Origin: Candidatus Eiseniibacteriota bacterium
Lineage (GTDB): Bacteria > Eisenbacteria > RBG-16-71-46 > SZUA-252
Assembly: GCA_036274595.1 (NCBI GenBank)
Contig: DASUFL010000087.1
Coordinates: 2,348-66,347, forward strand
Direction of reading: 5' to 3'
Length of the DNA: 64,000 bases
Below are positions 4,418 to 38,973 of the stretch, in pieces. Both the position numbers and the translations under genes were made by a program. Each line of letters opens with the position of its first letter. Positions within the stretch are counted from its first letter, which is position 1. The notes under the pieces were generated by a model that had not been told where the DNA came from, did not search any database, and saw nothing but the letters and a program-made list of their open reading frames with translations.

Positions 4418-7180
4418 TTAGAGCGCGAGCCAGTAGGTCGCCTTGAGGGCGATGACGTTCTCGGGGTCGATGTCGAAGAGGGCGCGCCAGTCGCGCGAGA
4501 ACTCGAAATCCCCGATCGGCGCGGTGGCTTCGCGCCCCTGCTGCCACACGAGGAAGAGGGCGGAGCCGGGCCTGTATTCCCAACGGAGGACAGCGTTCCC
4601 GCGGAACGATCGGAAGTTGAAGTCGGGGTTGTCGAAGCTGAAGGACGGCGCCGGGCCGCCCGCGTCGGGATCGATGACGACGGCTCCGGTGGAGTCCGAC
4701 CCCACGGTTCCCTGCTGCTTGCCGTAGACGTCGAACTCGAACTGGCGCGGAGCGCGGAGCTCCTTGAAGCGCGTGTAATCACCGCTCACGATCAAGGGCT
4801 GGACGTAGAGCTGGAACGTGAGCTTGGGCGAGAACGTCCACTCGACGCGCGTGTCGAGCGAGATCTGGGTTTGATGGAGTGAGGCAAAGACGTACCGCGC
4901 GCCATAGGTCTCGACCGCGGTCGGATCGTCTTCCGTCGTCACGTACTGCGCGTGATCGAGGAGCTTCCGCACGCCCGGCTCGAACAGGACGCGGAGCGCG
5001 GTGGTCGGACGCGTCGAGAGCGACGCGTTGAGCGTACGCAAGTGTCCCCCCGCGGCGTCCCAGATGAGCGCGCCGTTCAAGCCGAGGGTGGTCGACCGTC
5101 GGGAGTCGGTATTGATGGCAGCCTTGAACGCGCCTCCAGGGGGCACCCGCGACAGCGGCCCCCCGCGCGTCAGCCGGTCGTCGATGCTCCCCGGGTACCA
5201 CTCGCCGCGCAGATAGCCGGACCAGTAACTGGAGAAGGTTCCTTCGGCTTCCCCGGCGTACTCCTGATACGTGCGATCGCCGCCGTAATTCCACGACCAG
5301 TTCGAGAAGGCGAACGCGTCCCAGCTTCGCATCACCTTGTGGGGCGTGTTGTCCTTGTAGAGCGCGAGCGTGGAGAGCCCGCGGCTGTCCGCCGCGTTCT
5401 GGAAGCCCAGGTCGTTGATTTCGAACCCGGGGCTCCAGTCCTGGTAGGTGAGCGAGCCCTGGCCGTGCTTGCCCGCGATCTTGTTGATGGAGAGCTGCCC
5501 CGCGTGGCCGCTCAAGCTCGTGCGCGTGGGGTCGTACTCGAGGTAGTCGGCGTCCGGCCGCTGGTAGTAGCGCGCGCTCGAGGTCTGGGTCGATGCCATC
5601 GCGTCCGGGCTCCCTTTCACATAGCTCCCCATGAACATCGCGTCCAGGGACCATCGCCGGGACGACCAGTAGTGATTGAGGTCCATCCCGCCGGCCCAAG
5701 CGTCCTTGCGGAGGAGGCTCGAGAGGTCGGGATCGTCGAGATCGCGCCGGACTCCGGTCAGGATGGCGCCGACGACCGTGTTCCCCTGCCGGTAGTCGCG
5801 CCGCACGCGGCTGACGAAGTAGTTCGTGAGCGGCTCGACCGGCGTCTTCCGCTCCACGTCCGCGGAGTCCACGTAGTCGGCGCGTTCCTCCGGCGTCACC
5901 GCGTCCAGCACGCCGATCGTCCATCCGTTCCGCGTCTTCCCCGTGAGCTTGGCCGCCCCGGCGATCGTCGTGTGGACGGGCGCGTCGAGGAAGCGATACA
6001 CCTGCGAGTCGAGAGAGCGCTGCGGCTCGCGGCCGATGCGGCGGCCGTGGAAGGCGATCGTCGTGTTGAAGTTGTTGTAGCTCTGCATGTCGCCGAAGCG
6101 GAAGACGTTCGCCCCCTCGACGAAGAAGGGCCGCTTCTCGGGATAGAACGTCTCGAACGCCGAGAGATTCACGATCGCCGGGTCCACCTCCACCTCGCCG
6201 AAGTCCGGATTCACCGTCGCGTTCAGGGTGAGGCTCGAGGTCAGGCCGTACTTGAGATCCACGCCCGCGGCCGGGAACTGGTCCGAGCCGTCGCGGAACG
6301 GATCGTTCGGATCGCTCTGGAAGTGCTCCGATCGGACCATCCCGTACGGAAGGAGCTCGAGGTGCTTTCCCGCCTGCACCGATCCCAGCCCGGTGAGATG
6401 CCCGTACCGCGCGACGCTCGCATTGTCCTTGAGGGGCGTGAACGAGAACTCCGACAGCTCCTGCCGCCGGTTGATCCACCGGCGGATCTGGATGCCCCAG
6501 ACCGCGTCGGCCGCCGTGTTGTAGTGGAGCTGCGACAAGGGAATCTCGACTTCGGCCGTCCAGCCGAGGCTGTCGATCGAGGTGTGCACATGCCAGACCG
6601 GATCCCAGGAGAAGTCCTGGTTGCCGTTCGCCGCGATCGTGGCGTCGTTGATCGAGCCGGAGGGGCTCACGCGGAAGAGGACCGCCGTCGAGTGATCGTG
6701 ATACGCGTCGATCAGGATCGCGAGGTAGTCGGACTCGAGGTCGTCGTCGCGGCGCACCAGCCGGGAGCGGATCTTCCTCGCGTCCTTGTCGTAGAGGCGC
6801 GCGCCGATGAAGAGCGCGTCGTCGGCGATCAGGGCGCGCACCTCGGTGCGCTCGGAGCAGGGCTTCCCTTCATCCGGCTGGCGCTGCGTGAATTGATCGA
6901 CCGGCGTCGCCGTTTTCCATGCGTCGTCGTCGAGACGCCCGTCCACGCGAATCGTGCCCGTGAGCGGTGCCGCATGGAGCTGGGGCGCGTCGGCATGGGA
7001 GGCCGAGGCTCCCGGTCCGGCGGGCGGGGGAAAGACGTTGGGCCCTGGGGCGGTCGAATCGGCGGGCGTGCCGCTACCGGGCAGGGATTGGGCGGCGGAT
7101 GCGGGAGTCGTTGGAAGGAACAGGGTCCATGTCGTGAGAAGCGGCAGAGCCGCGACCAGCCAGCGATTCCGTGCGCGCAT
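4418..7180 (-). CDS. DUF5916 family outer-membrane protein with N-terminal CBM9-like domain
   Basis: 920 aa with a signal peptide. N-terminal GTIRVDGRLDDDAWKTATPVDQF ... matches the family-9 carbohydrate-binding-module pattern. The long beta-rich C-terminal region ending ...LKATYWLAL is barrel-like. Confidence 0.6.
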   Translation of the reverse strand: MRARNRWLVAALPLLTTWTLFLPTTPASAAQSLPGSGTPADSTAPGPNVFPPPAGPGASASHADAPQLHAAPLTGTIRVDGRLDDDAWKTATPVDQFTQRQPDEGKPCSERTEVRALIADDALFIGARLYDKDARKIRSRLVRRDDDLESDYLAILIDAYHDHSTAVLFRVSPSGSINDATIAANGNQDFSWDPVWHVHTSIDSLGWTAEVEIPLSQLHYNTAADAVWGIQIRRWINRRQELSEFSFTPLKDNASVARYGHLTGLGSVQAGKHLELLPYGMVRSEHFQSDPNDPFRDGSDQFPAAGVDLKYGLTSSLTLNATVNPDFGEVEVDPAIVNLSAFETFYPEKRPFFVEGANVFRFGDMQSYNNFNTTIAFHGRRIGREPQRSLDSQVYRFLDAPVHTTIAGAAKLTGKTRNGWTIGVLDAVTPEERADYVDSADVERKTPVEPLTNYFVSRVRRDYRQGNTVVGAILTGVRRDLDDPDLSSLLRKDAWAGGMDLNHYWSSRRWSLDAMFMGSYVKGSPDAMASTQTSSARYYQRPDADYLEYDPTRTSLSGHAGQLSINKIAGKHGQGSLTYQDWSPGFEINDLGFQNAADSRGLSTLALYKDNTPHKVMRSWDAFAFSNWSWNYGGDRTYQEYAGEAEGTFSSYWSGYLRGEWYPGSIDDRLTRGGPLSRVPPGGAFKAAINTDSRRSTTLGLNGALIWDAAGGHLRTLNASLSTRPTTALRVLFEPGVRKLLDHAQYVTTEDDPTAVETYGARYVFASLHQTQISLDTRVEWTFSPKLTFQLYVQPLIVSGDYTRFKELRAPRQFEFDVYGKQQGTVGSDSTGAVVIDPDAGGPAPSFSFDNPDFNFRSFRGNAVLRWEYRPGSALFLVWQQGREATAPIGDFEFSRDWRALFDIDPENVIALKATYWLAL

Positions 7181-7429
7181 GACGATCCCTCGAAACGCTC
7201 CTTCCCCGATCCTCCTTCATCTACGGCTGGATGGCGCGCCCGGTTTCTTCGGCGTCGCCGGCGAGGGATGAGACGGTCCTGGCCGGGATTTGGTTGGAAC
7301 GTTGGGCGCGGCGGCCGCGGACTCGGTGGCCGCGGACTCGGTGGCTCCCGTGACTCGAGGCGGCGAGACCAGTGCGAATAGAGCGATCGCGAGACAGGCG
7401 GTTCGGAGCATGTCCGGTATCGGAACGGC

Positions 7430-8743
7430 TCAGGCGGCCGTACCGTCCTCCACCACCCAGCGGACCGAGCGCGAGCAGGGACACATCCCGCCGACGCGTT
7501 TCAGCTTCGGCATCTTCCTGATCGCCTGATCCACGGTGGTCCGGCCGGCTACAACGTCTCGAAGCGTTTCCAGATAGCTCTTCAGATCGCGGCTGTGGAG
7601 GTAGGGCTCGGGGAGATTCTGCTTCAGATGGCGCAGGTACGAATCCACGTCCGTGTAGGACTCTCCGCGCGTGCCCACCATCGTGAACGCCGGCTCGCCT
7701 TTCCGACGATAGAAGGACGGATGCGGGATCCGGATCAGGTCCTCGTGATCGATCCCCTCATGGCGCCCGCCGTCCTTCATCAGGCGATCGGCGATCCGTT
7801 CGGCTTCCTCGGGCGAGAGATTGGGGAGTCTCGCGCGGAGGTAGCGCTGGTTCAAGTCCGCGATCATCTTGCGGACCTCCTCGTAGTAGAGCGACTGCGC
7901 CTCCGCGTTCTTCATGTTCTTGAAGCCGAACCGGATGTTGGAGTCGCCCCCCTTCTCGTGGCCGAACATCTCGAGCCCGCGGGGGAGCCACTTGTTGAAG
8001 GAGCGCTGGATGGCCCGGGTGGAGATGAGCTCGTTCCCTTCGGCGGCGCGCTGGACCCAGCGGCGAAGCGGAATGACGCCCGCGGCGAGGTGGAAGGCCT
8101 CCTCCCTCAGCATGGGGGGCATCGATTGCGCGAACGGCTTGTACGCGCAGACTTTCTGCATCGAGAGCTGGTACTTGCCGACCCGGTCGATGACCGCGGC
8201 GAAGACCACGTTGTCCACGAAGGAGTCGTACTCGAGGTTGAAGGCGTCGAGGACGTGCGATCCCGTCTGCATGGAGAGGATCTCCTCGACCATCTCTTCC
8301 GCCTTCTGCCCCGAGACCCCGCTCCAGTCCTGCGAGACGAGGAGATGGAACATCTGGTAGCCGTGCCTGAGCTCCTCCGCCATCACGCGGAGCACCCAGA
8401 AGCGATCCTCGTCGTCCTGCGCGCGGGCCAGCGTTCCCTCGTGCTGCTGGATGGAGCCGAATTCGGTCGAGGCCTGCGCGCGGATGATGGCCAGAAGGTG
8501 CCGCGCCGGCTCCTCCCCCATCTCCGAGGGCTTCGTCATCCGGCGCTCGCCCTTCTTGTCCCCGACCTCGATCGTGTCCCCCATCCCGATCTCCATCTTG
8601 GCGCAGAGGCAGAACTCGGGATCGTTGGGGAAATAGGTCTGCCAGCTCTCGGGGAGGAGTCCGTAGTCGGGGAAGTTGTGCCGCCGCCAGTGGATGACGG
8701 CGTCGTGGAACTTCTTCGGCAGCGTGGTCTGCTCGACGTTCAT
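7430..8743 (-). CDS. BoxB-like ferritin-fold diiron oxygenase (benzoyl-CoA 2,3-epoxidase subunit B family), orphan
   Basis: 437 aa with two EXXH diiron motifs (MAEELRHGYQMFH and LREEAFHLAAG) plus additional carboxylates. Size and pattern fit the BoxB/PaaA-like class. C-terminal CPC motif (GGMCPCSRS). Confidence 0.5.
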   Translation of the reverse strand: MNVEQTTLPKKFHDAVIHWRRHNFPDYGLLPESWQTYFPNDPEFCLCAKMEIGMGDTIEVGDKKGERRMTKPSEMGEEPARHLLAIIRAQASTEFGSIQQHEGTLARAQDDEDRFWVLRVMAEELRHGYQMFHLLVSQDWSGVSGQKAEEMVEEILSMQTGSHVLDAFNLEYDSFVDNVVFAAVIDRVGKYQLSMQKVCAYKPFAQSMPPMLREEAFHLAAGVIPLRRWVQRAAEGNELISTRAIQRSFNKWLPRGLEMFGHEKGGDSNIRFGFKNMKNAEAQSLYYEEVRKMIADLNQRYLRARLPNLSPEEAERIADRLMKDGGRHEGIDHEDLIRIPHPSFYRRKGEPAFTMVGTRGESYTDVDSYLRHLKQNLPEPYLHSRDLKSYLETLRDVVAGRTTVDQAIRKMPKLKRVGGMCPCSRSVRWVVEDGTAA

Positions 8744-30058: not shown

Positions 30059-30805
30059 TCAGGAACCGGTGCGGGTCACCTTGAGCGGAGCATCGAGCAC
30101 GACGTTGATCTTCTGCCCGGTTCCGAGAACGATCTGGTCGCCCTTCGTCGCGACGGCGACGCCGGTGCCCACGACCGCGCCCACTGCGGCTCCCTTGGCC
30201 ACGTCACCGGATCCGTGCCCCAGCACGCCGCCCAGGATGCCGCCCGCGACGGCGCCTCCGCCGATCTCGAGCGCGCTCTCCTTGGCGTCCCCCTTGCCCT
30301 CCAGGCGAAGCGGCGCGGCGGAGATGTCATAGGTCGTCCCGTCCGGCAGCTTGATGCTGTCGTAACGGAGCGTCAGCTTGGCCCCGCCGGCGACGCGTCC
30401 CGCTCCGTCCACATAGGAGAGGTGGCCGCGGATCGTCGAGCCGGCCGGCACGGCCGTGGCGCCGTCCACGGTCTTGGCGAGGACGGTGCGGATGCTGAAG
30501 GGATCGCCGACGTGATTCTTGCCGGAGTCGAGCGTTTGCTGGAGCGTGCCCGTGAAGGACGTCCCGGCCGCCAGCGTGTACGTGCGCGACGTCGGCCCCG
30601 CCTTCGACGGGGCTTGCTCCGAAGCTTGCTCCTCTCCGGCCGGCGTGAGCTTGTCCTCGGTGGCCGTCGCCCCCTGGTCCTTCGGCTGCTCCTTGTCCGC
30701 GACCGCCTTCTGCTGATCGCCGCAGCCGGCGAGCACGAATGCCAGGACGAGGACGCCACCCATTCCACTCAGCGTTCGCATCATGCGCTTGTCGAGCATC
30801 GTCAT
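30059..30805 (-). CDS. hypothetical lipoprotein with C-terminal glycine-zipper segment
   Basis: Lipobox LAGC. Low-complexity linker and Gly-rich stretch GGGAVAGGILGGVLGHGSGDVAKGAAVGAVVGTGVAV. Confidence 0.5.
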   Translation of the reverse strand: MTMLDKRMMRTLSGMGGVLVLAFVLAGCGDQQKAVADKEQPKDQGATATEDKLTPAGEEQASEQAPSKAGPTSRTYTLAAGTSFTGTLQQTLDSGKNHVGDPFSIRTVLAKTVDGATAVPAGSTIRGHLSYVDGAGRVAGGAKLTLRYDSIKLPDGTTYDISAAPLRLEGKGDAKESALEIGGGAVAGGILGGVLGHGSGDVAKGAAVGAVVGTGVAVATKGDQIVLGTGQKINVVLDAPLKVTRTGS

Positions 30806-30815
30806 TCTCCTTCGT

Positions 30816-32930
30816 TCAGGCCTGGCCTAGATAGCGATCCAGCCATTCCCGAACCTCACGGTTCCAGACGAGCGAGTTCTTGGGTTTCAAGACCCAGTGG
30901 TTCTCGTCCGGGAAGAAGACCAGGCGGGAATCGACCCGCTTGGCTTGGTAGATGTTGTACGCGGCGAGCGCCTGCGTGTGCGGCACGCGGTAGTCGCGCT
31001 CTCCGTGAAGAATCAGCATCGGCGTCGTGAATCCGCGCGCGAACCGCGCGGGATTCCACCGGTCGATCGCCTCGAGCCGGTCCCACGGCTCCCCGCCGTA
31101 GGCCTGATGCCTCCCCTGCGTGACGTCGCTCCCGTACTCGGCCAGCAGATCGAACACGCCCGCGTGGTTCACGAGACAGCGGAAGCGATCCGTGTGCCCC
31201 GCGATCCAGCAGACGAGGTATCCGCCGTAGGAGCCGCCCGCCGCGGCCATGCGCGCGGGATCCACGAAGCCGGTCTCGATCAGGACGTCGGTCGCGCGCA
31301 TGATGTCGGTGAACGGCTTGTCTCCATGCCCGCCCTGGATGCAGGCGGCGAACTCCTGCCCCCACGACGTCGATCCGTGGAAGTTCACGGACGCGACCAC
31401 GTAGCCGCGGGCCGCGAAGAGATGCGGATTCCACCGGAAGTGGAAGTTGTCCCCCGAGATCGCGTGCGGCCCGCCGTGGATGACGTGGACCAGCGGCCAC
31501 TTCTTCGACGGATCGAAGTTGGGCGGGAGCGTCACGTACATCTGGACCGGATCGTTGTCCGCTCCCTGGAAGATCATCTCGCGCACCTCGCCCATCGCGA
31601 TCCCGGCGAGGATGGGAGCGTTGAAGCTCGTGTGCATCTGGAGGTCGCTGCCGTCCGGCTTGGCGCTCGCCGCCTCGGCGGGCGCGCTCAGCGACTGGAT
31701 CGTGAAGTAGAGGCGGCCGTCCCGGCCCACCCTGAGCCCGCCGACGGTCCCTGGGATTCCGAGGGGGCGCGGCGTCGGCTCCTCGGCCGGAAAATGGAAC
31801 AGCGCATTCCTGCCTCGATCCTCCGCATCGATCGCGAGCGAGCCGTCAGGGAGGAACTCCCACGCTCCCGCCGAGCGATCCCACGCCTCGGTGAGCGTCC
31901 GATGCGTGTCCGTCGCGCGGTCGTAGCGCACGAGCCGCACCTTGTCGGCATAGAAGAAGGGATCGCGCTGTGCGCCGTAGACGATCGACCGCCCGTCGGG
32001 CGAATAGCGCGGACGGAGCGCGTCGGACACGTTCTCGGGCGAGCCCTCCGGCGTCAGGCAGCGCACCGGCCCTTGGCCGGACGTCGGAACCGTGTAGACG
32101 GCCCAGCGCAGAAGGTAATGAGGCGGCTGGCTGGAGTTGGCGGAGAACGCGATCTCCGATCCGTCCGGGGCGATGTCGTAATGCCCCGTCGGATCCATGA
32201 AGTCGAGCCAGCCCGCTCCGTCGGGGGTGAGATCGGTGAGAGCGCGCGTCGCGAGATCGAGCACGAACAGATGCGGGCGCTCGCCTCCCGTGAGCCACTT
32301 GTCCCAGAAGCGGTAGATGCGATCCGAGGTCACGTGCGCCTTCACCGGATCCTTGGCGCGCTTCTCGAGGAGCTCCTTCGTCCCGACGGGCGTGGGCGCG
32401 TCCGCGAGCAGGAACGCGACGAACGCGATCCGCTTCCCATCCGGGAGCCAGCGTGGATCCATCGCGCCGAGCGGCATCTCGGTGAGGCGCTCGGGCTCGC
32501 CCCCCTGGAGCGCGAGGATGTGGATCTGCGGCTTCTCGTCTCCCTGGCACCGCGCGTAGAGGAGCCGCGTGCCGTCGGGGGAGAGCGCGGGCTCGGTGGA
32601 CGAGGCATCCGCGCTGGTCAACGGGCGCGCCTCACCCTGGCGGGGAATCCGCCAGAGACGTGCGCGGCCGCGATTCTCTTCGATGTCGTAGGTCGTGACG
32701 GGAACGATCAGGAAGGAACCGTCCGGCGCGGGCGCGGGAGCGCCGACGCGGCTCATGCGCCAGAGATCCTCCGCCGCCATGGGACGCTGGCCACGGTTCC
32801 GGGCCTGGTGAAGGACGGCGAACGGCTGTGCTTCCGATCGGGGCTCGGCGACGTGCACGGCACACCTCCGGTGGGGAGAGACCCGCAGCCACCCCGGCGT
32901 GGGCGCGGGACTGACGGAATGGGTCATCAT
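30816..32930 (-). CDS. S9 family serine peptidase (prolyl oligopeptidase/acylaminoacyl-peptidase type) with N-terminal beta-propeller
   Basis: TolB-like WD/propeller repeats. C-terminal alpha/beta hydrolase with GGSYGG nucleophile motif, and Asp/His later (HGERDYRVP...ENHWV). Start uncertain (M1 at 32930 or M51 at 32780). Confidence 0.8.
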   Translation of the reverse strand: MMTHSVSPAPTPGWLRVSPHRRCAVHVAEPRSEAQPFAVLHQARNRGQRPMAAEDLWRMSRVGAPAPAPDGSFLIVPVTTYDIEENRGRARLWRIPRQGEARPLTSADASSTEPALSPDGTRLLYARCQGDEKPQIHILALQGGEPERLTEMPLGAMDPRWLPDGKRIAFVAFLLADAPTPVGTKELLEKRAKDPVKAHVTSDRIYRFWDKWLTGGERPHLFVLDLATRALTDLTPDGAGWLDFMDPTGHYDIAPDGSEIAFSANSSQPPHYLLRWAVYTVPTSGQGPVRCLTPEGSPENVSDALRPRYSPDGRSIVYGAQRDPFFYADKVRLVRYDRATDTHRTLTEAWDRSAGAWEFLPDGSLAIDAEDRGRNALFHFPAEEPTPRPLGIPGTVGGLRVGRDGRLYFTIQSLSAPAEAASAKPDGSDLQMHTSFNAPILAGIAMGEVREMIFQGADNDPVQMYVTLPPNFDPSKKWPLVHVIHGGPHAISGDNFHFRWNPHLFAARGYVVASVNFHGSTSWGQEFAACIQGGHGDKPFTDIMRATDVLIETGFVDPARMAAAGGSYGGYLVCWIAGHTDRFRCLVNHAGVFDLLAEYGSDVTQGRHQAYGGEPWDRLEAIDRWNPARFARGFTTPMLILHGERDYRVPHTQALAAYNIYQAKRVDSRLVFFPDENHWVLKPKNSLVWNREVREWLDRYLGQA

Positions 32931-32981
32931 AGACGACCCACGCCGCCGACGGAACCGCGGAACGCGGCTCCGGGAGTCGGG

Positions 32982-34130
32982 CTAGTAGCGAAAGACCGCC
33001 GCGATCGGGCTGGCGGTGGGCATCGAGGCGCGTGGCACTACGAAGGCCTCGCCACCCCGCTTGAGCGCTTCCTCGCAAAGGTCGTCGAGGAGATCGTCGT
33101 CCACGGCGTCGAGCTGACGCTCGCGCCGCTCCACCGAGCCCGTGGCCCGGTCGAGGATCCCCCAGACCGTCTCGCCCTCGGCTGCGAGCACGCACGACAC
33201 CCGTCCCTGGATCACGGCTTCCGCCACGGACTCGATGCGATCGCTCGCGAGGCCGCTCGGGGCCGACGTCTTGTAGCGCTCGACCCAAGGCTCGAAGCCA
33301 CGCGGCGCGGCCGCGCTCACGATGGGCCACGCGTCCGCATGGATCTTGTCGCCGTTCGCGTGCTCGTAGCTCCCCTCGAGCATGGTGGCCATCAGATGCG
33401 GGTACGTGTTCGCCTCGTGGTAGATCGGCTGGTAGTACTTCACCGCGGCGAGGAGGAGCGGGGCGCGCTCGCCGTGCAGGAATTCGCGGAGCGCCTTGTC
33501 GATGACATGGAAGTAGGAGAGGAGATCTTCCTTCGTCTCCTCCTTCCCCGGCCCGTAGCCGTGATACGCGGCGCCCCCCGCGTGCAGCGTCATCAAGCGG
33601 CGCTCGTTCACCACCTCGCCGAGCGCGTCGGTGACGCTCTGCGGGAGCCCGGGCACGTCCACGGCCGACGCGCCGAGCGGCCCGCCCTCGAAGAGCCGCG
33701 CCGATTTCTGGCTCACGGCGAGGACGAAGTAGCGGGTCGCCTCATGCTTGAGACGGAGGAGCGGCTTCACGTGGAACGAGTCGGCCACCACCGCGATCTC
33801 GGGCAGGGACGCGGACACGCGGTACGCGGCCGCGAGCGATGGCGAGAGGAAAGCCGCGAATCCGTCGAGCGAGCGCTGCCAGTGCGATTCCTGCTCGAGC
33901 GCGCGGAGCGGAGCGATCATCGCTTCGGCATCGGGCGCGTCCTGCTTGAGGAGCGCCGCCGCCTTGTCGACGAGATTCCGGTAGCGGAGGGGATCCTGCC
34001 GCTTCTCCGGAAAACGGCGCGAGGTCGGCAGGTAGATCGAAACGCATGGGGCGCCTGCCGCCTGGAGAAGCGGCTTCAGGTCCTCGCTCCGGAAGGTCTG
34101 GACGTCGATCTTTTGTGCGCGGGAGGCCAT
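32982..34130 (-). CDS. eRF1/Pelota-like (bacterial baeRF / host-attachment-type) protein
   Basis: 382 aa. C-terminal segment ...VWGILDRATGSVE...DLLDDLCEEALKRGGEAFVV...SPIAAVFRY resembles domain 3 of eRF1/Pelota, which ends GGI(A/G)AILRY/F. No GGQ motif. Confidence 0.5.
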   Translation of the reverse strand: MASRAQKIDVQTFRSEDLKPLLQAAGAPCVSIYLPTSRRFPEKRQDPLRYRNLVDKAAALLKQDAPDAEAMIAPLRALEQESHWQRSLDGFAAFLSPSLAAAYRVSASLPEIAVVADSFHVKPLLRLKHEATRYFVLAVSQKSARLFEGGPLGASAVDVPGLPQSVTDALGEVVNERRLMTLHAGGAAYHGYGPGKEETKEDLLSYFHVIDKALREFLHGERAPLLLAAVKYYQPIYHEANTYPHLMATMLEGSYEHANGDKIHADAWPIVSAAAPRGFEPWVERYKTSAPSGLASDRIESVAEAVIQGRVSCVLAAEGETVWGILDRATGSVERRERQLDAVDDDLLDDLCEEALKRGGEAFVVPRASMPTASPIAAVFRY

Positions 34131-34133
34131 GGC

Positions 34134-34367
34134 TCAGACCGCCTTGGGTGCCGGGGGCGGAAGCGCGATCGCGACGACGGCGGAGTCGAAGCCACAGGTC
34201 TTGTGCGCCGAGTCGCAGAACGGCTTCTTGGAGGACTGTCCGCAGCGGCAGAGGGTGATCGCGGTGCGACCCGCCAGGTCGAACTCGCGGCCGTCCTGAT
34301 CCACGATCGTGAACTCCCCCTCGATGCGGATGGGGCCGTTGTTCCGGATGATGATCTTGGCGGGCAT
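34134..34367 (-). CDS. CDGSH-type iron-sulfur domain protein (variant CDSAH)
   Basis: 77 aa from ATG at 34367. Motif [17 protein letters not shown] = C-X-C-X2-S-X3-P-X-C-D-S-A-H. Lies 3 nt upstream of the eRF1-like gene. Confidence 0.75.
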
Positions 34368-34497
34368 TCGCTCCTCCCAGGTCCATGGATCGGGCCCACG
34401 CCGGTGCGCGGCGGTCCCCCTCGTCGTCGCCTCCAAGTATATACTCCCCGGGAACCGTCTCGCCTCATCCCCCAAACCCAGAGAGGTCAGCCGCCCC

Positions 34498-36177
34498 ATG
34501 GCGCCCCAGTACATCTTCACGATGGTCAATCTCGGCAAGGTCCATCCGCCCAACAAGGAGGTCCTGAAGGGGATCTACCTGTCCTTCTATCCGGGCGCCA
34601 AGATCGGCGTCCTCGGCCAGAACGGCGCGGGCAAGAGCACGCTCCTCCGCATCATGGCCGGAGTCGAGGAGCCGACGTCGGGCGAGGCCAGGCCGGCCAG
34701 GGGGATCAAGGTCGGCTTCCTGCCCCAGGAGCCCGTGCTCGATCCCACGAAGGACGTGCTCGGCAACATCCAGGAGGGCGTGGCCGAGACGAAGGCGCTG
34801 CTGGACCGCTTCAACGAGCTGAACATGAAGCTGGGCGAGTCGCTCTCCGACGCCGAGATGGAGAAGGTGATGGAAGAGCACGGACGCGTGATGGCCGAGA
34901 TCGAGGCGGTCAATGCCTGGGAGCTCGACCGCACGCTCGAGATCGCGATGGATGCGCTCCGCGTGCCCCCTGGCGATGCCAAGGTCGAGACCTTGTCGGG
35001 TGGCGAGCGGCGCCGCGTCGCTCTCTGCCGGCTCCTGTTGACGCGTCCTGATTTGCTGTTGCTGGACGAGCCCACGAACCACCTCGACGCCGAGTCGGTG
35101 GCGTGGCTCGAGCGCTTCCTCCACGACTACCCCGGCACCGTCGTCGCCGTGACCCACGACCGCTACTTCCTCGACAACGTCGCCGGCTGGATCCTCGAGC
35201 TGGATCGCGGACAGGGCATTCCCTGGGAGGGAAACTACTCGTCCTGGCTCGATCAGAAGAAGAACCGGCTCGCGCTCGAGGAGAAGGCCGAGTCCTCGCG
35301 CCAGCGCACGCTCGCCCGCGAGCTCGAATGGATCCGCATGTCGCCCCGCGCGCGGCAGGCCAAGAGCAAGGCGCGCGTCACCGCGTATGAGGAATTGCTG
35401 CGAGAGGACACGGAGAAGCGGAGCGAGATCACCGAGATCACGATCCCCCCCGGCCCGCGCCTCGGGAACCTCGTGGTCGAAGCGACGAACCTCTCGAAGG
35501 GCTACGGCGACCGAGCGTTGATCGAGGACCTCTCGTTCCGTCTCCCTCCCGGCGGCATCGTCGGCATCATCGGCCCGAACGGCGCCGGCAAGACGACGCT
35601 CTTCCGCATGATCGCCGGCCAGGAGAAGCCGGATGGCGGCACGCTCCGCCTCGGCGACACGGTGACGCTCTCCTACGTGGACCAGTCGCGCGAGGCCCTC
35701 GACGGCAAGAAGACGGTGTGGGAGGAGATCTCCGGAGGCGAGGACCTGATCGAGCTCGGCACCCGGAGCGTCCCCTCGCGCTCCTACGTGGCCGCCTTCA
35801 ACTTCAAGGGCGCCGATCAGCAAAAGCCCGTGAAGAACCTCTCCGGCGGCGAGCGGAACCGCGTGCACCTGGCCAAGGTCTTGAAGTCAGGCGGGAACTT
35901 GCTGCTCCTCGACGAGCCGACGAACGACCTCGACGTCGATACGCTGCGCGCGCTCGAAGAGGCGATCCTGGGCTTCGCGGGCTGCGTTTGCGTGATCACC
36001 CACGATCGCTGGTTCCTCGACCGGATCGCCACGCACATGCTGGCGTTCGAAGAGGACGGGAGCGTGGTGTGGTTCGAGGGCAACTTCCAGGACTACGAAG
36101 CCAACCGCCACATGCGCCTGGGAGCCGCGGCGGACCAGCCGCACCGGCCGAGGTACAAGAAGCTGGTGCGGGAGTAG
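34498..36177 (+). CDS. ettA: energy-dependent translational throttle protein EttA (ABC-F ATPase)
   Basis: 559 aa. Two ABC cassettes ([31 protein letters not shown]; [20 protein letters not shown]) and an arm/linker region; near-identical in length to E. coli EttA. Confidence 0.9.
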
Positions 36178-36489
36178 ATGCCGAGAGCCCTCCCCCGGCA
36201 GACGCCCCACATGAGCCGATGTCGCCCGTTTCTGCGCCTTATCAGGCAGAAGCGTCGTCGGTCGCGACTGGAGAGCACGGTCGAGCCCGCGGCCGCCCTA
36301 CTTATGCCCTGACATCCGTTTCGCCATAATACACACTCACCCCATGGCTTAGCGGACCCAGGCGCCGCCCGGGGCGCCCGTCCGAGCCTCCCCCGCGATC
36401 CCGCGCTCCTCGATATCCCGATCCAGCTTCAGGTCCAGCTTCATGAGGTCGCTCGGTACTGACCGACCGTGCTCTAGGGGGGCACTCTC

Positions 36490-38973
36490 ATGACACGTCT
36501 GCTCGCGCCCGCATCGCTTGCCGTTCTGCTCGTGTCCGTTCCGCTCGCCTTGCCCGCAGCCGCGCCCGCGGCCGACCTCGACACGAGATACGGGGCTCCG
36601 TTCTCGACCCTGCCCATGTATCAGACGAACACGAGCGTCCTCATGCGGGACTGGAACGGGGACGGGCTGCTGGACGTCACCGTTACCTGCAACGCGGACG
36701 ACCGCGTCTCCACGCTGAAGGGCGTAGGTCAAGGCGGCTTCGGGGGGCGCATTGATTTCTCCGGCCCGGACGGTCCGTACAAGGTCGCGGCTGGAGACAT
36801 CGATGGCGATGGGACGGCGGACATGGTGCTGGCCCTGTACGACGCGAATTCGGTGCGGGTCTACTACCTCGTGCCGGGCGACGTGAGCTACAGCACCTTC
36901 GCGGATCTGCCCACCGGCTCGGGGCCGGTCGACGTCGCCGTGGCTGACATCGATCAAGACGGAGACAACGACATCGTGACGTCGAACTTCAACTCGAACA
37001 ACATCTCGGTCCTGCGCAACAGCGGCGGCGGCACCTTCCTCCCTCACGCCGACTACGCAGCCGGCCAGAACCCGTGGGGCATGGCCGTGGGACGTGTGAA
37101 CGCCGATGCCTACCCCGACGTCGTCACCGCCGACTTCTCGAGCAGCACCGTGACGCTCTGGCTCGGGTCGTCCACGGGAACGCTCACATTCGGCTACAGC
37201 CTGTCGGCCGGCAGCAATCCTACCGATGTGGCGCTCGTCGACCTGGACGCGGACGGCGTCCAGGACATGGCACTCGCGAATCTCAATGCCCCGAGCATCA
37301 CGCTCGTGGACGCCTATGGAGACATTGCCCTCCAGGTCGTCGGAACTCTCCCGAGCCTCTCCGGCTACGAAGTCGTAGCGGCCGATTTCAACAACGACGG
37401 AAAAGTCGATCTGGCGATCGCGGGGTCCGAGAACGCGAGCGGCTCGGGCACCGTGCACCTCGGATCCGGAGTCGGCGCGTTCGGTCCCCGCCACGATTTC
37501 GCCACGGGAGGGAACCTCTCGATCGGGATGGCGGCGGGGGATCTGGATGGTGACGGAAAGGCCGACCTGGCCCTCGCCTCATCGCCGAACAATGTCTCGC
37601 TGCTCCGGGGGAATGGCGACGGAACGTTCGGCGTGAATCGAGCGGTGGCTCCCGACGGCGTGAACGCGGATTTCAAGAGAGTGGCGCTGGCCGAGATGAC
37701 CGGTGACAGCCATCTCGATCTCGTCCTCGCGGGAAATGCCAACGTGCGCGTCGCCCAGGGAAACGGCTCCGGCGCCTTCTCCTTCGTAGGACAGAGCGGA
37801 GCTCCGGCGGTCGATATCGCCGTGGCCGACCTCGATGGCGATGGCGATCGCGACATCGCGAGCGTCAGCGGCACCGCGTTCACGAACCTCGCCATCTCCT
37901 ACAATCCGGGGAACGGGGCCATCGCGACGGGCGCCATCTACACGGTGGGAGGAATCGCTCTGGCGGTGGCCGCTGGTGACGTCGACCACGACGGGTACCC
38001 CGATCTGGTCGTCGGCTGCGACGTCCCCGGCGATCTCTTCTTCTTGCGGAACCTTGGGGACGGCTCGTTCGCCGCTGCGACGTCCGTCGCGGGGAGCGGG
38101 TGGCGGCGTGCCGTGGCCGTCGTCGACGTGGACGGAGACGGCGACCCCGACATCGTGGCCGCGAATTACCTCGCGGACAACGTGGAGGTCTACCCGGGAG
38201 ATGGCTCGGGGGGCTTCGGACCGAGCACGACCTTCGCGACGGGACACCGACCGGTCTCGATCGGGACCGGCGACTTCAATACGGACGGAGCTACCGATCT
38301 CGCTCTCGCATGCGAAGGGAACACGATTTCCGTCCTTCTGAATTCCGGGAGCGGAACGTTTCTCCCCGCGACCGCGTACGTCAAGCCTGGTGTCTGGAGC
38401 GGTATCGCGGTCGGGAGCGCGGACCAGGACGCCTCGCCCGATCTCTTCGTCGTCGACGGTTACAACTATTCCGTCTCGATCCTGAACGGCTCGCCCGGGG
38501 GCGGATTCACGTTCCAGGGACGCTCCTGGGGTGTCCCGGCGACGCCGGAGGGGCTCGCCGTTGGCGATCTGAACGAGGATGGCCGCACGGATATCGTGGC
38601 GTCCGGAGGCGCACTCTACGGAGGAGCCGGTTTCGCGCAGGTTCTCCTGTACGAGGGAGGGACCGTGACGGGGGTCGAGTCCTCTCCGGCCATCGATCGG
38701 AACGGGCTCGCCCAGAACCGGCCCAATCCATTCAATCCTCGCACCGAGATTTCCTTCGTGATGGCGCGAAGCGGTCCGGCGACGCTTCGCGTCTACGACG
38801 CAAGTGGGCGTCTGGTTCGGACCCTCCTCGAGCGGTCGCTCGATGCTGGACTCCACAGTGCTGGATGGGACGGCATGGACGCAGAGGGCCGGAGGGCGGC
38901 TTCGGGAGTCTATTTCTACCGTCTGGTCACGCCGGGATTCGACAGCGCGAAGAAGATGCTGCTGATGAAGTAA
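36490..38973 (+). CDS. FG-GAP/VCBS repeat (integrin-alpha-like beta-propeller) protein with T9SS-type C-terminal sorting domain
   Basis: Signal peptide. Many DxDGDGxxD/FG-GAP motifs. C-terminus NRPNPFNPRTEISFVMARSGPATLRVYDASGRLVRTLL...SGVYFYRLV...KKMLLMK matches the TIGR04183-like tail. Confidence 0.8.
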   Translation: MTRLLAPASLAVLLVSVPLALPAAAPAADLDTRYGAPFSTLPMYQTNTSVLMRDWNGDGLLDVTVTCNADDRVSTLKGVGQGGFGGRIDFSGPDGPYKVAAGDIDGDGTADMVLALYDANSVRVYYLVPGDVSYSTFADLPTGSGPVDVAVADIDQDGDNDIVTSNFNSNNISVLRNSGGGTFLPHADYAAGQNPWGMAVGRVNADAYPDVVTADFSSSTVTLWLGSSTGTLTFGYSLSAGSNPTDVALVDLDADGVQDMALANLNAPSITLVDAYGDIALQVVGTLPSLSGYEVVAADFNNDGKVDLAIAGSENASGSGTVHLGSGVGAFGPRHDFATGGNLSIGMAAGDLDGDGKADLALASSPNNVSLLRGNGDGTFGVNRAVAPDGVNADFKRVALAEMTGDSHLDLVLAGNANVRVAQGNGSGAFSFVGQSGAPAVDIAVADLDGDGDRDIASVSGTAFTNLAISYNPGNGAIATGAIYTVGGIALAVAAGDVDHDGYPDLVVGCDVPGDLFFLRNLGDGSFAAATSVAGSGWRRAVAVVDVDGDGDPDIVAANYLADNVEVYPGDGSGGFGPSTTFATGHRPVSIGTGDFNTDGATDLALACEGNTISVLLNSGSGTFLPATAYVKPGVWSGIAVGSADQDASPDLFVVDGYNYSVSILNGSPGGGFTFQGRSWGVPATPEGLAVGDLNEDGRTDIVASGGALYGGAGFAQVLLYEGGTVTGVESSPAIDRNGLAQNRPNPFNPRTEISFVMARSGPATLRVYDASGRLVRTLLERSLDAGLHSAGWDGMDAEGRRAASGVYFYRLVTPGFDSAKKMLLMK

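Follow-up and report, generated by a model that had tools for sequence, protein, structure and literature searches.

A 64-kb window (a stretch of 64,000 nucleotides [nt] of contig DASUFL010000087.1 from Candidatus Eisenbacteria) was analysed for two adjacent minus-strand genes, a CDGSH gene followed by a gene encoding 382 amino acids (aa). The pair probably forms a two-gene Eisenbacteria operon in which a Balon-family ribosome hibernation factor is joined by a CISD, a CDGSH-type iron-sulfur (Fe-S) protein, as a co-induced stress partner. The operon status is drawn from a short junction that persists while stop codons and spacers change and while the stretch downstream accepts insertions. Homology, fold, loss of the catalytic motif, and operon structure and conservation were computed here; we infer behaviour on the ribosome from Balon, the hibernation factor AOC03_06830 of Psychrobacter urativorans described in 2024 (PDB 8RD8/8RDV/8RDW; PMC10901736). 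The open reading frames (ORFs) were read from the window, and the core of the cassette is as follows.

34134..34367, minus strand: gene of a 77-aa predicted type-4 CISD (CDGSH) [2Fe-2S] protein (ORF, Pfam zf-CDGSH, 3TBM_A match)
34131..34133, minus strand: 3-nt spacer GCC, from the CDGSH stop TGA to the ATG of the Balon-like gene (sequence)
32982..34130, minus strand: gene of a 382-aa predicted Balon-family (Pfam baeRF_family3) aeRF1-fold protein (Pfam, PDB match, AlphaFold2 model)

On the evidence of profile searches and a structural model, the 382-aa protein is an aeRF1-fold member of the Balon family, baeRF_family3. It matched Pfam baeRF_family3 (PF18845) with E=5.4e-36 (124.9 bits, cut-off 31.5), and several sister baeRF families in Pfam also matched. 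Balon's own best Pfam match is baeRF_family3 (E=4.6e-30), and the two proteins therefore share a Pfam family. The alignment with Balon chain 8RD8_B runs from end to end (residues 17-382 against 4-369, E=1.2e-18), as does that with NCBIfam NF052287, the AOC03_06830 family ribosome hibernation factor (19-382 against 2-361 of 361). An exact match (P0001) comes from a Candidatus Eisenbacteria metagenome-assembled genome. The family comprises 12,031 representatives at 50% identity with E≤1e-3, and the 382 aa fall inside the 360-420 aa length range of the Balon family (bioRxiv 10.1101/2022.11.24.517861).

The AlphaFold2 (AF2) model was built from 20 homologues and reached a predicted local distance difference test (pLDDT) score of 83.9 and a predicted template modelling (pTM) score of 0.71, with confidence outside loop 173-195. 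The domains are an N domain (~1-128), a middle domain (~134-275), and a C domain (~280-382). In a Foldseek search against the PDB, the Balon structures 8RDV_B, 8RDW_B, and 8RD8_B ranked first (E~1e-23, template modelling [TM] score 0.63-0.69), followed by the mycobacterial Balon homologues Msmeg1130 and Rv2629 (8V9J, 8V9L, 8V9K); aRF1/eRF1 (E 1e-12 and weaker) and Pelota (1e-6) came later, with TM scores of 0.24-0.41. A preliminary description of the locus had taken the protein for a baeRF-type relative of eRF1/Pelota from its C-terminal end, PIAAVFRY. The Pfam family, the full-length Balon match, and the Foldseek result for the AF2 model all agree with this assignment, and the C-terminal likeness is, as far as sequence comparison goes, true homology rather than mimicry.

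The preliminary description had also recorded that the protein lacks a GGQ motif, and the motif check agrees; neither GGQ nor NIKS strings were found in the 382-aa protein. The middle-domain loop reads HGYGPG (190-195; HGYGPGK to residue 196) and has no Gln. Across the subfamily the loop follows HG-x-G-(P/A/G), again without Gln, and GGQ stands at the loop position in 0 rows of the homologue alignment A1. The counterpart of this loop in eRF1 is HGRGGQS. The AF2 model places a beta-hairpin in the C domain at 323-336 (strands 323-326 and 333-336, at the level of secondary structure); in Balon, the C-domain hairpin is the EF-Tu(GDP)-binding site (PMC10901736). By analogy, the closest precedent for the 382-aa protein is A-site ribosome hibernation, which is its expected role, not rescue or quality control. 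The earlier statement that no bacterial protein of this fold had been characterised biochemically is outdated because Balon belongs to the same family as the 382-aa protein and was characterised; Balon, Rv2629, and Msmeg1130 were studied in 2024 by structures on ribosomes and by genetics (PMC10901736).

The 77-aa protein is, judged from its sequence, an ordinary type-4 CISD with a predicted [2Fe-2S] cluster. It matched Pfam zf-CDGSH with E=2.1e-18 (66.8 bits, cut-off 29.5). Motifs were recognised by the pattern C-X-C-X2-(S/T)-X3-P-X-C-D-G-(S/A/T)-H with 3 Cys and 1 His. The CDGSH-type motif of the 77-aa protein occupies residues 40-56 and had rightly been called complete, with all four ligands (C40, C42, C51, and H55) present and followed by K56. 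The window copy reads CDSAH (Gly replaced by Ser), and in relatives the stretch is CDG[ST]H or CDS[AST]H; no relative examined, the paired rows (window plus 15 loci) included, departs from the four cluster ligands. Type-4 CISDs have beta-strands N-terminal to the motif and a conserved Lys/Arg after the His ligand (PMC3174974), and this arrangement was found in the 77-aa protein from its match to 3TBM_A and from H55-K56. The best solved relative is that same structure, RsCISD from Ralstonia solanacearum (3TBM_A; residues 5-63 against 10-67, E=6e-15), which likewise has a single motif after beta-strands, 3Cys-1His ligation, Lys after His, and about 75 aa. The window CISD differs from RsCISD in its CDSAH in place of CDGSH and in sharing an operon with a translation factor.

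The C-terminal tail of the 77-aa protein, LPPPAPKAV, covers residues 69-77 (window 34134-34160). An LPPPxPK(P) tail is invariant in the CISD subfamily of the 77-aa protein, and a strict pattern for it matches 35 of 80 metagenome CDGSH loci, with LPPKK variants besides, among soil type-4 CISDs. Its polyproline run is found 5-7 codons ahead of the stop, next to the start of the downstream gene. As a trait specific to the pairing the tail was ruled out, because a large soil CISD subfamily has it generally and it is frequent in CISDs without baeRF.

The CDGSH gene ends 3 nt before the 382-aa gene, as had been described (TGA, GCC, then ATG at 34130); both genes lie on the minus strand, which the preliminary description left unstated. 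The junction appears operonic from its sequence, and the two genes are probably co-transcribed with translational coupling. No terminator-like site was found between the CDGSH and Balon-like genes, and a search of the surroundings of the cassette for sigma-70 consensus promoters and for terminators returned nothing informative. Programmed read-through across the in-frame TGA-GCC-ATG was ruled out because the junction frame is not maintained across related loci. An Rfam scan of 30500-36500 gave zero matches, and the 5' untranslated region folded no better than shuffled sequences (z=+1.5). No second baeRF or CDGSH gene was found in the 64-kb window, which has a G+C content of 68%.

For conservation, a profile built for the 382-aa protein was run against one genome per species (GTDB), and the best 80 loci were analysed; CDGSH neighbours were detected in three ways (tblastn, motif, and hidden Markov model). 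A CDGSH gene stood directly upstream on the same strand in 18/18 loci that had upstream DNA and a homologue at least 49% identical, and with 18/18 related loci the adjacency is far beyond chance. The outcomes that the preliminary description had named as fatal, a fortuitous likeness and an adjacency not conserved in other genomes, were thus not what was found. The 18 loci belong to one lineage. The label is Eisenbacteria for most of them and another phylum for four, in which the flanking genes are nevertheless the same. The CDGSH proteins of the 18 pair loci are 69-96% identical to the window copy. The gap between the two genes is 3-6 nt in most loci, with extremes of -4 (an ATGA overlap) and +46 nt, and TGA, TAG, and TAA are all used as CDGSH stop codons, i.e., the junction was kept short while its sequence turned over.

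Beyond this lineage, a CDGSH gene was present within 6 kb in 0/61 loci with baeRF homologues at most 42% identical (Nostocales, Desulfobacterota, Gemmatimonadota, Acidobacteriota, and others), and a baeRF gene was present within 4 kb in 0/80 metagenome loci with CDGSH homologues 42-71% identical. Since the pairing is absent from these 61 distant baeRF loci and 80 CDGSH loci, it is a lineage-specific operon of Candidatus Eisenbacteria and not a general link of both families. CDGSH-baeRF fusions numbered 0 among the best 120 matches per protein and the best 150 of the 12,031 family representatives.

In Gemmatimonadota and Trueperaceae, HPF/S30AE-type genes adjoin baeRF_family3 homologues that are 36-38% identical to the 382-aa protein, at the following positions.

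L042 139-504: HPF/S30AE gene
L043 ~2246-2386: HPF/S30AE gene
L065 ~5569-5988: HPF/S30AE gene
L053 ~6909-7508: HPF/S30AE gene

The HPF gene is directly upstream in the three Gemmatimonadota loci (L042, L043, and L065), so the slot of the CDGSH gene in Eisenbacteria is held there by a hibernation factor gene. This adjacency in relatives reproduces the published association of Balon genes with RaiA (PMC10901736) and of baeRF genes with HPF (Burroughs and Aravind).

Upstream of the cassette lies the divergent ettA, and the 130-bp region between it and the CDGSH gene holds two short elements.

34372..34378, minus strand: Shine-Dalgarno-like GGGAGGA, 4 nt 5' of the CDGSH ATG (read from the sequence)
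34435..34446, no strand assigned: AT-rich palindrome AAGTATATACTC in the 130-bp ettA/CDGSH intergenic region (intergenic alignment of pair loci)
34498..36177, plus strand: ettA (ABC-F energy-dependent translational throttle), divergent from the cassette (TIGR03719)

The window ettA scored 948.6 bits against TIGR03719 (cut-off 806.75). In all 17 of the pair loci that have upstream DNA, ettA (82-97% identity) is the divergent upstream neighbour. On the ribosome, EttA acts as a sensor of ATP/ADP. The ettA/CDGSH intergenic regions of the pair loci (80-280 bp) have diverged apart from one block in the alignment, the palindrome GAGTATATACTC, which is the family consensus of AAGTATATACTC; a purine-rich AGGAGG-like block is also kept at the Shine-Dalgarno position of the aligned regions. 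The palindrome core GTATATAC occurs as a single copy in the 64-kb window (0.03 expected), once and at the same place in 16 of those 17 pair loci, and hardly at all in the other ~1.1 Mb examined; it was absent from the CDGSH-SURF1 loci, in which it was also sought. The palindrome lies ~37-70 nt upstream of the CDGSH start and, from its sequence and position, may be an operator or a shared (bidirectional) -10 element. An ettA gene was also seen near CDGSH genes without a Balon-like gene (L084, L085, L087, and L093).

On the other side, the cassette is followed by a peptidase gene.

30816..32930, minus strand: S9 (Dpp5-like) peptidase, 704-aa longest ORF, start codon uncertain (Pfam Peptidase_S9)

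The ORF matched Pfam Peptidase_S9 with E=3e-53 and fell below the NCBIfam Dpp5 cut-off. The preliminary description placed an S9 peptidase 51 nt downstream of the Balon-like gene on the same strand, which is correct for the longest ORF (32930..30816); the distance itself is less secure, as it is not certain which start codon is used. On an identical contig, a public gene call begins the protein at M51 (~32780), 201 nt downstream of the Balon-like gene, and S9 homologues are conserved from about residue 16-25 of the longest ORF. An S9 gene is downstream in 17/18 pair loci at distances from 50 nt to ~3 kb, with unrelated genes inserted, namely NAPRTase (L006, L011, and L018), an extracytoplasmic function (ECF) sigma factor (L015), and cupin_7 (L017 and L081). 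The baeRF-S9 stretch is an insertion hot spot, in contrast to the fixed CDGSH-baeRF junction. The downstream synteny further includes a hypothetical lipoprotein-like gene and an M50/CBS protease, and the S9 peptidase belongs to the conserved neighbourhood outside the tight core.

Under the proposed explanation, the Balon-like protein would, by homology with Balon, enter the A site of 70S ribosomes in stress or stationary phase independently of mRNA. The N domain would occupy the decoding centre but read no mRNA. The middle domain would adjoin the peptidyl-transferase centre and, with the GGQ glutamine replaced (HGYGPG), would leave peptidyl-tRNA unhydrolysed, and the C domain would contact EF-Tu(GDP). 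Balon itself binds the A site independently of mRNA, releases no peptide, and engages EF-Tu(GDP) under stress (PMC10901736). The CISD would be a homodimer with 3Cys-1His [2Fe-2S] clusters, co-transcribed with the Balon-like gene from a promoter region that is predicted to be common with the divergent ettA and to bear the conserved palindrome, and would act as a co-induced stress-operon partner in redox or Fe-S homeostasis. Balon genes are typically found in stress operons, and Rv2629/Msmeg1130 are hypoxia-induced (PMC10901736). The CISD as a co-expressed stress partner is likelier than direct control of the hibernation factor by its cluster; a redox input into hibernation, for which gene order in one lineage is the basis, is plausible and as yet unproven.

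Several observations weigh against this explanation. On the side of the 382-aa protein, identity with Balon is only ~21%, and the NF052287 score of 150.4 bits is below the equivalog cut-off of 330, which makes the protein a homologue and not an NCBI-defined equivalog. Balon's middle domain bears a lasso loop and a bL27 trap; the loop equivalent to the lasso/GGQ region (173-195) has pLDDT <50 in the AF2 model. An HP motif in the N domain of Balon contacts A1492/A1913, and the only N-domain His-Pro of Balon (THREHP) aligns with TSRRFP (F40-P41), a position where most relatives have His-Pro. The 64-kb window was searched for an HPF/RaiA gene and yielded none, and RaiA/HPF is reported to be encoded in all Balon genomes (bioRxiv 10.1101/2022.11.24.517861). 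On the side of the CISD, CDGSH homologues outside the lineage have no constant partner and diverse downstream genes, and a CDGSH protein 71% identical to that of the window is coupled to SURF1 instead of baeRF. Part of the conservation of the pairing could also be inheritance, because a larger block (ettA to S9, hypothetical gene, and M50 protease) is syntenic within the lineage as well.

This last point leads to the possibility that the two genes are neighbours by descent only, in an inherited syntenic block of Eisenbacteria with no functional relation beyond a common transcript, which is rather unlikely. It would account for a pairing limited to one lineage, in which ettA, the S9 gene, the hypothetical gene, and the M50 protease gene are likewise syntenic, and for a related CDGSH gene that stays near ettA but is followed by SURF1. 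It accounts poorly for a junction still at -4 to +46 nt, with differing stops, after the proteins diverged to 49% (baeRF) and 69% (CISD) identity, while the adjacent baeRF-S9 intergenic stretch took up different genes and a palindrome specific to the pair loci was kept upstream.

Direct redox or Fe-S gating is unlikely. In this reading, the CISD dimer would bind either the ribosome or the factor, and the oxidation state or loss of its labile, His-ligated [2Fe-2S] cluster would set A-site occupancy according to oxygen, redox, or iron. The tight, probably translationally coupled pair in 18 species would favour stoichiometric co-production, the cluster ligands are invariant, and the product of the neighbouring ettA is itself a ribosome-bound sensor of ATP/ADP. 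Other Balon homologues respond to hypoxia (PMC10901736), and in the Tetrahymena mitoribosome one integral Fe-S subunit, mL107, is a CDGSH protein (PMC7326499). Gating is harder to reconcile with the lack of a CDGSH-baeRF fusion among the matches and representatives searched, and with a CISD subfamily that is common, tail included, with no baeRF nearby. The great majority of the 12,031 family representatives also evidently function without a CISD, because none of the 61 distant loci has one. The fuller version is quite unlikely. In it, the CISD would serve as a dedicated partner, bound to either the Balon-type factor or the ribosome, and A-site hibernation would be switched on or off by the redox state of its [2Fe-2S] cluster or by whether that cluster is intact; with EttA next door and a shared operator, the locus would form a hub that ties translation shutdown to energy and redox status. 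A rescue or quality-control role, as predicted in the preliminary description, whether Pelota-like rescue of stalled ribosomes or aeRF1-like peptide release, is highly improbable beside the expected Balon-type A-site hibernation: the aeRF1/Pelota fold and the listing of rescue by Burroughs and Aravind as one possibility for baeRF-1 proteins speak for it, but throughout the subfamily the conserved HGxG loop lacks the catalytic Gln, NIKS is missing too, Balon (a hibernation factor) and its homologues are structurally nearer than Pelota, and relatives are linked to HPF/RaiA.

Returning to the co-induced hibernation operon, the 382-aa protein resembles Balon in its Pfam family, three-domain aeRF1 architecture, similar length, C-domain hairpin, absence of GGQ/NIKS, full-length alignment, and best structural match, and in having relatives that adjoin HPF/RaiA genes. 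It differs in its low identity, its place below the NCBIfam equivalog cut-off, Phe-Pro in place of the N-domain His-Pro, and a CDGSH Fe-S operon partner, which is outside the listed Balon neighbours (RaiA, Hsp20, OsmC/OsmY, HdeD, MarC/EmrB, and RtcB; PMC10901736). With aeRF1/Pelota (Dom34), it shares the fold, domain order, the HGxG part of the GGQ loop, and the C-terminal ...AA..R[YF] strand, but it lacks the catalytic Gln and NIKS, and its structural scores are weaker than to Balon. The mitoribosomal mL107 (6Z1P chain AV), in the large subunit of the Tetrahymena mitoribosome (PMC7326499), is a ribosome-bound CDGSH-type Fe-S protein with weak similarity to the 77-aa protein in the motif region (E=0.0024). 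It differs from the window CISD in having 160 aa and two Fe-S clusters held by CDGSH motifs and in being a structural component of a ribosome of an organelle. In the literature library searched, no paper links CDGSH with baeRF or ribosome hibernation, and CDGSH is not mentioned in the Balon paper (PMC10901736).

The Balon family itself is known; the neighbourhoods described for Balon include no CDGSH partner, no divergent ettA, and no such palindrome (PMC10901736). The published model for loading and release of Balon-type factors rests on the nucleotide state of EF-Tu, and the triggers are only partly understood. A conserved, coupled Fe-S partner would, if true, be the first candidate sensor attached to the Balon family, and the link would give bacterial type-4 CISDs their first functional context. 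If the relation is one of co-expression only, the catalogue of Balon stress operons gains a neighbour type consisting of CDGSH, divergent ettA, and palindrome. With this divergent new member, the Balon family also reaches into Candidatus Eisenbacteria, an uncultured phylum of soil.

Some minor observations concern relatives of the two proteins. In the CDGSH-SURF1 loci, the two genes overlap by 4 nt (L083 1708-2711; L084 and L085 5426-6429); SURF1 is a cytochrome oxidase assembly protein, and from this overlap the CISD swaps operon partners between lineages. Homologue P0104 (54% identical) lacks the whole C-domain hairpin region that matches the EF-Tu(GDP) hairpin of Balon (A1 columns ~347-367). 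In P0279 (526 aa), a DUF2267 domain is fused N-terminally to a baeRF_family3 protein, and the homologue P0376 (496 aa) carries an unannotated 115-aa extension. In many Nostocales loci, the baeRF_family3 gene has a DUF1361 membrane protein gene upstream and a gene for a conserved 273-aa protein without Pfam match downstream, as in the following example.

L027 5096-5752 and 7225-8046: flanks of the Nostocales baeRF_family3 gene

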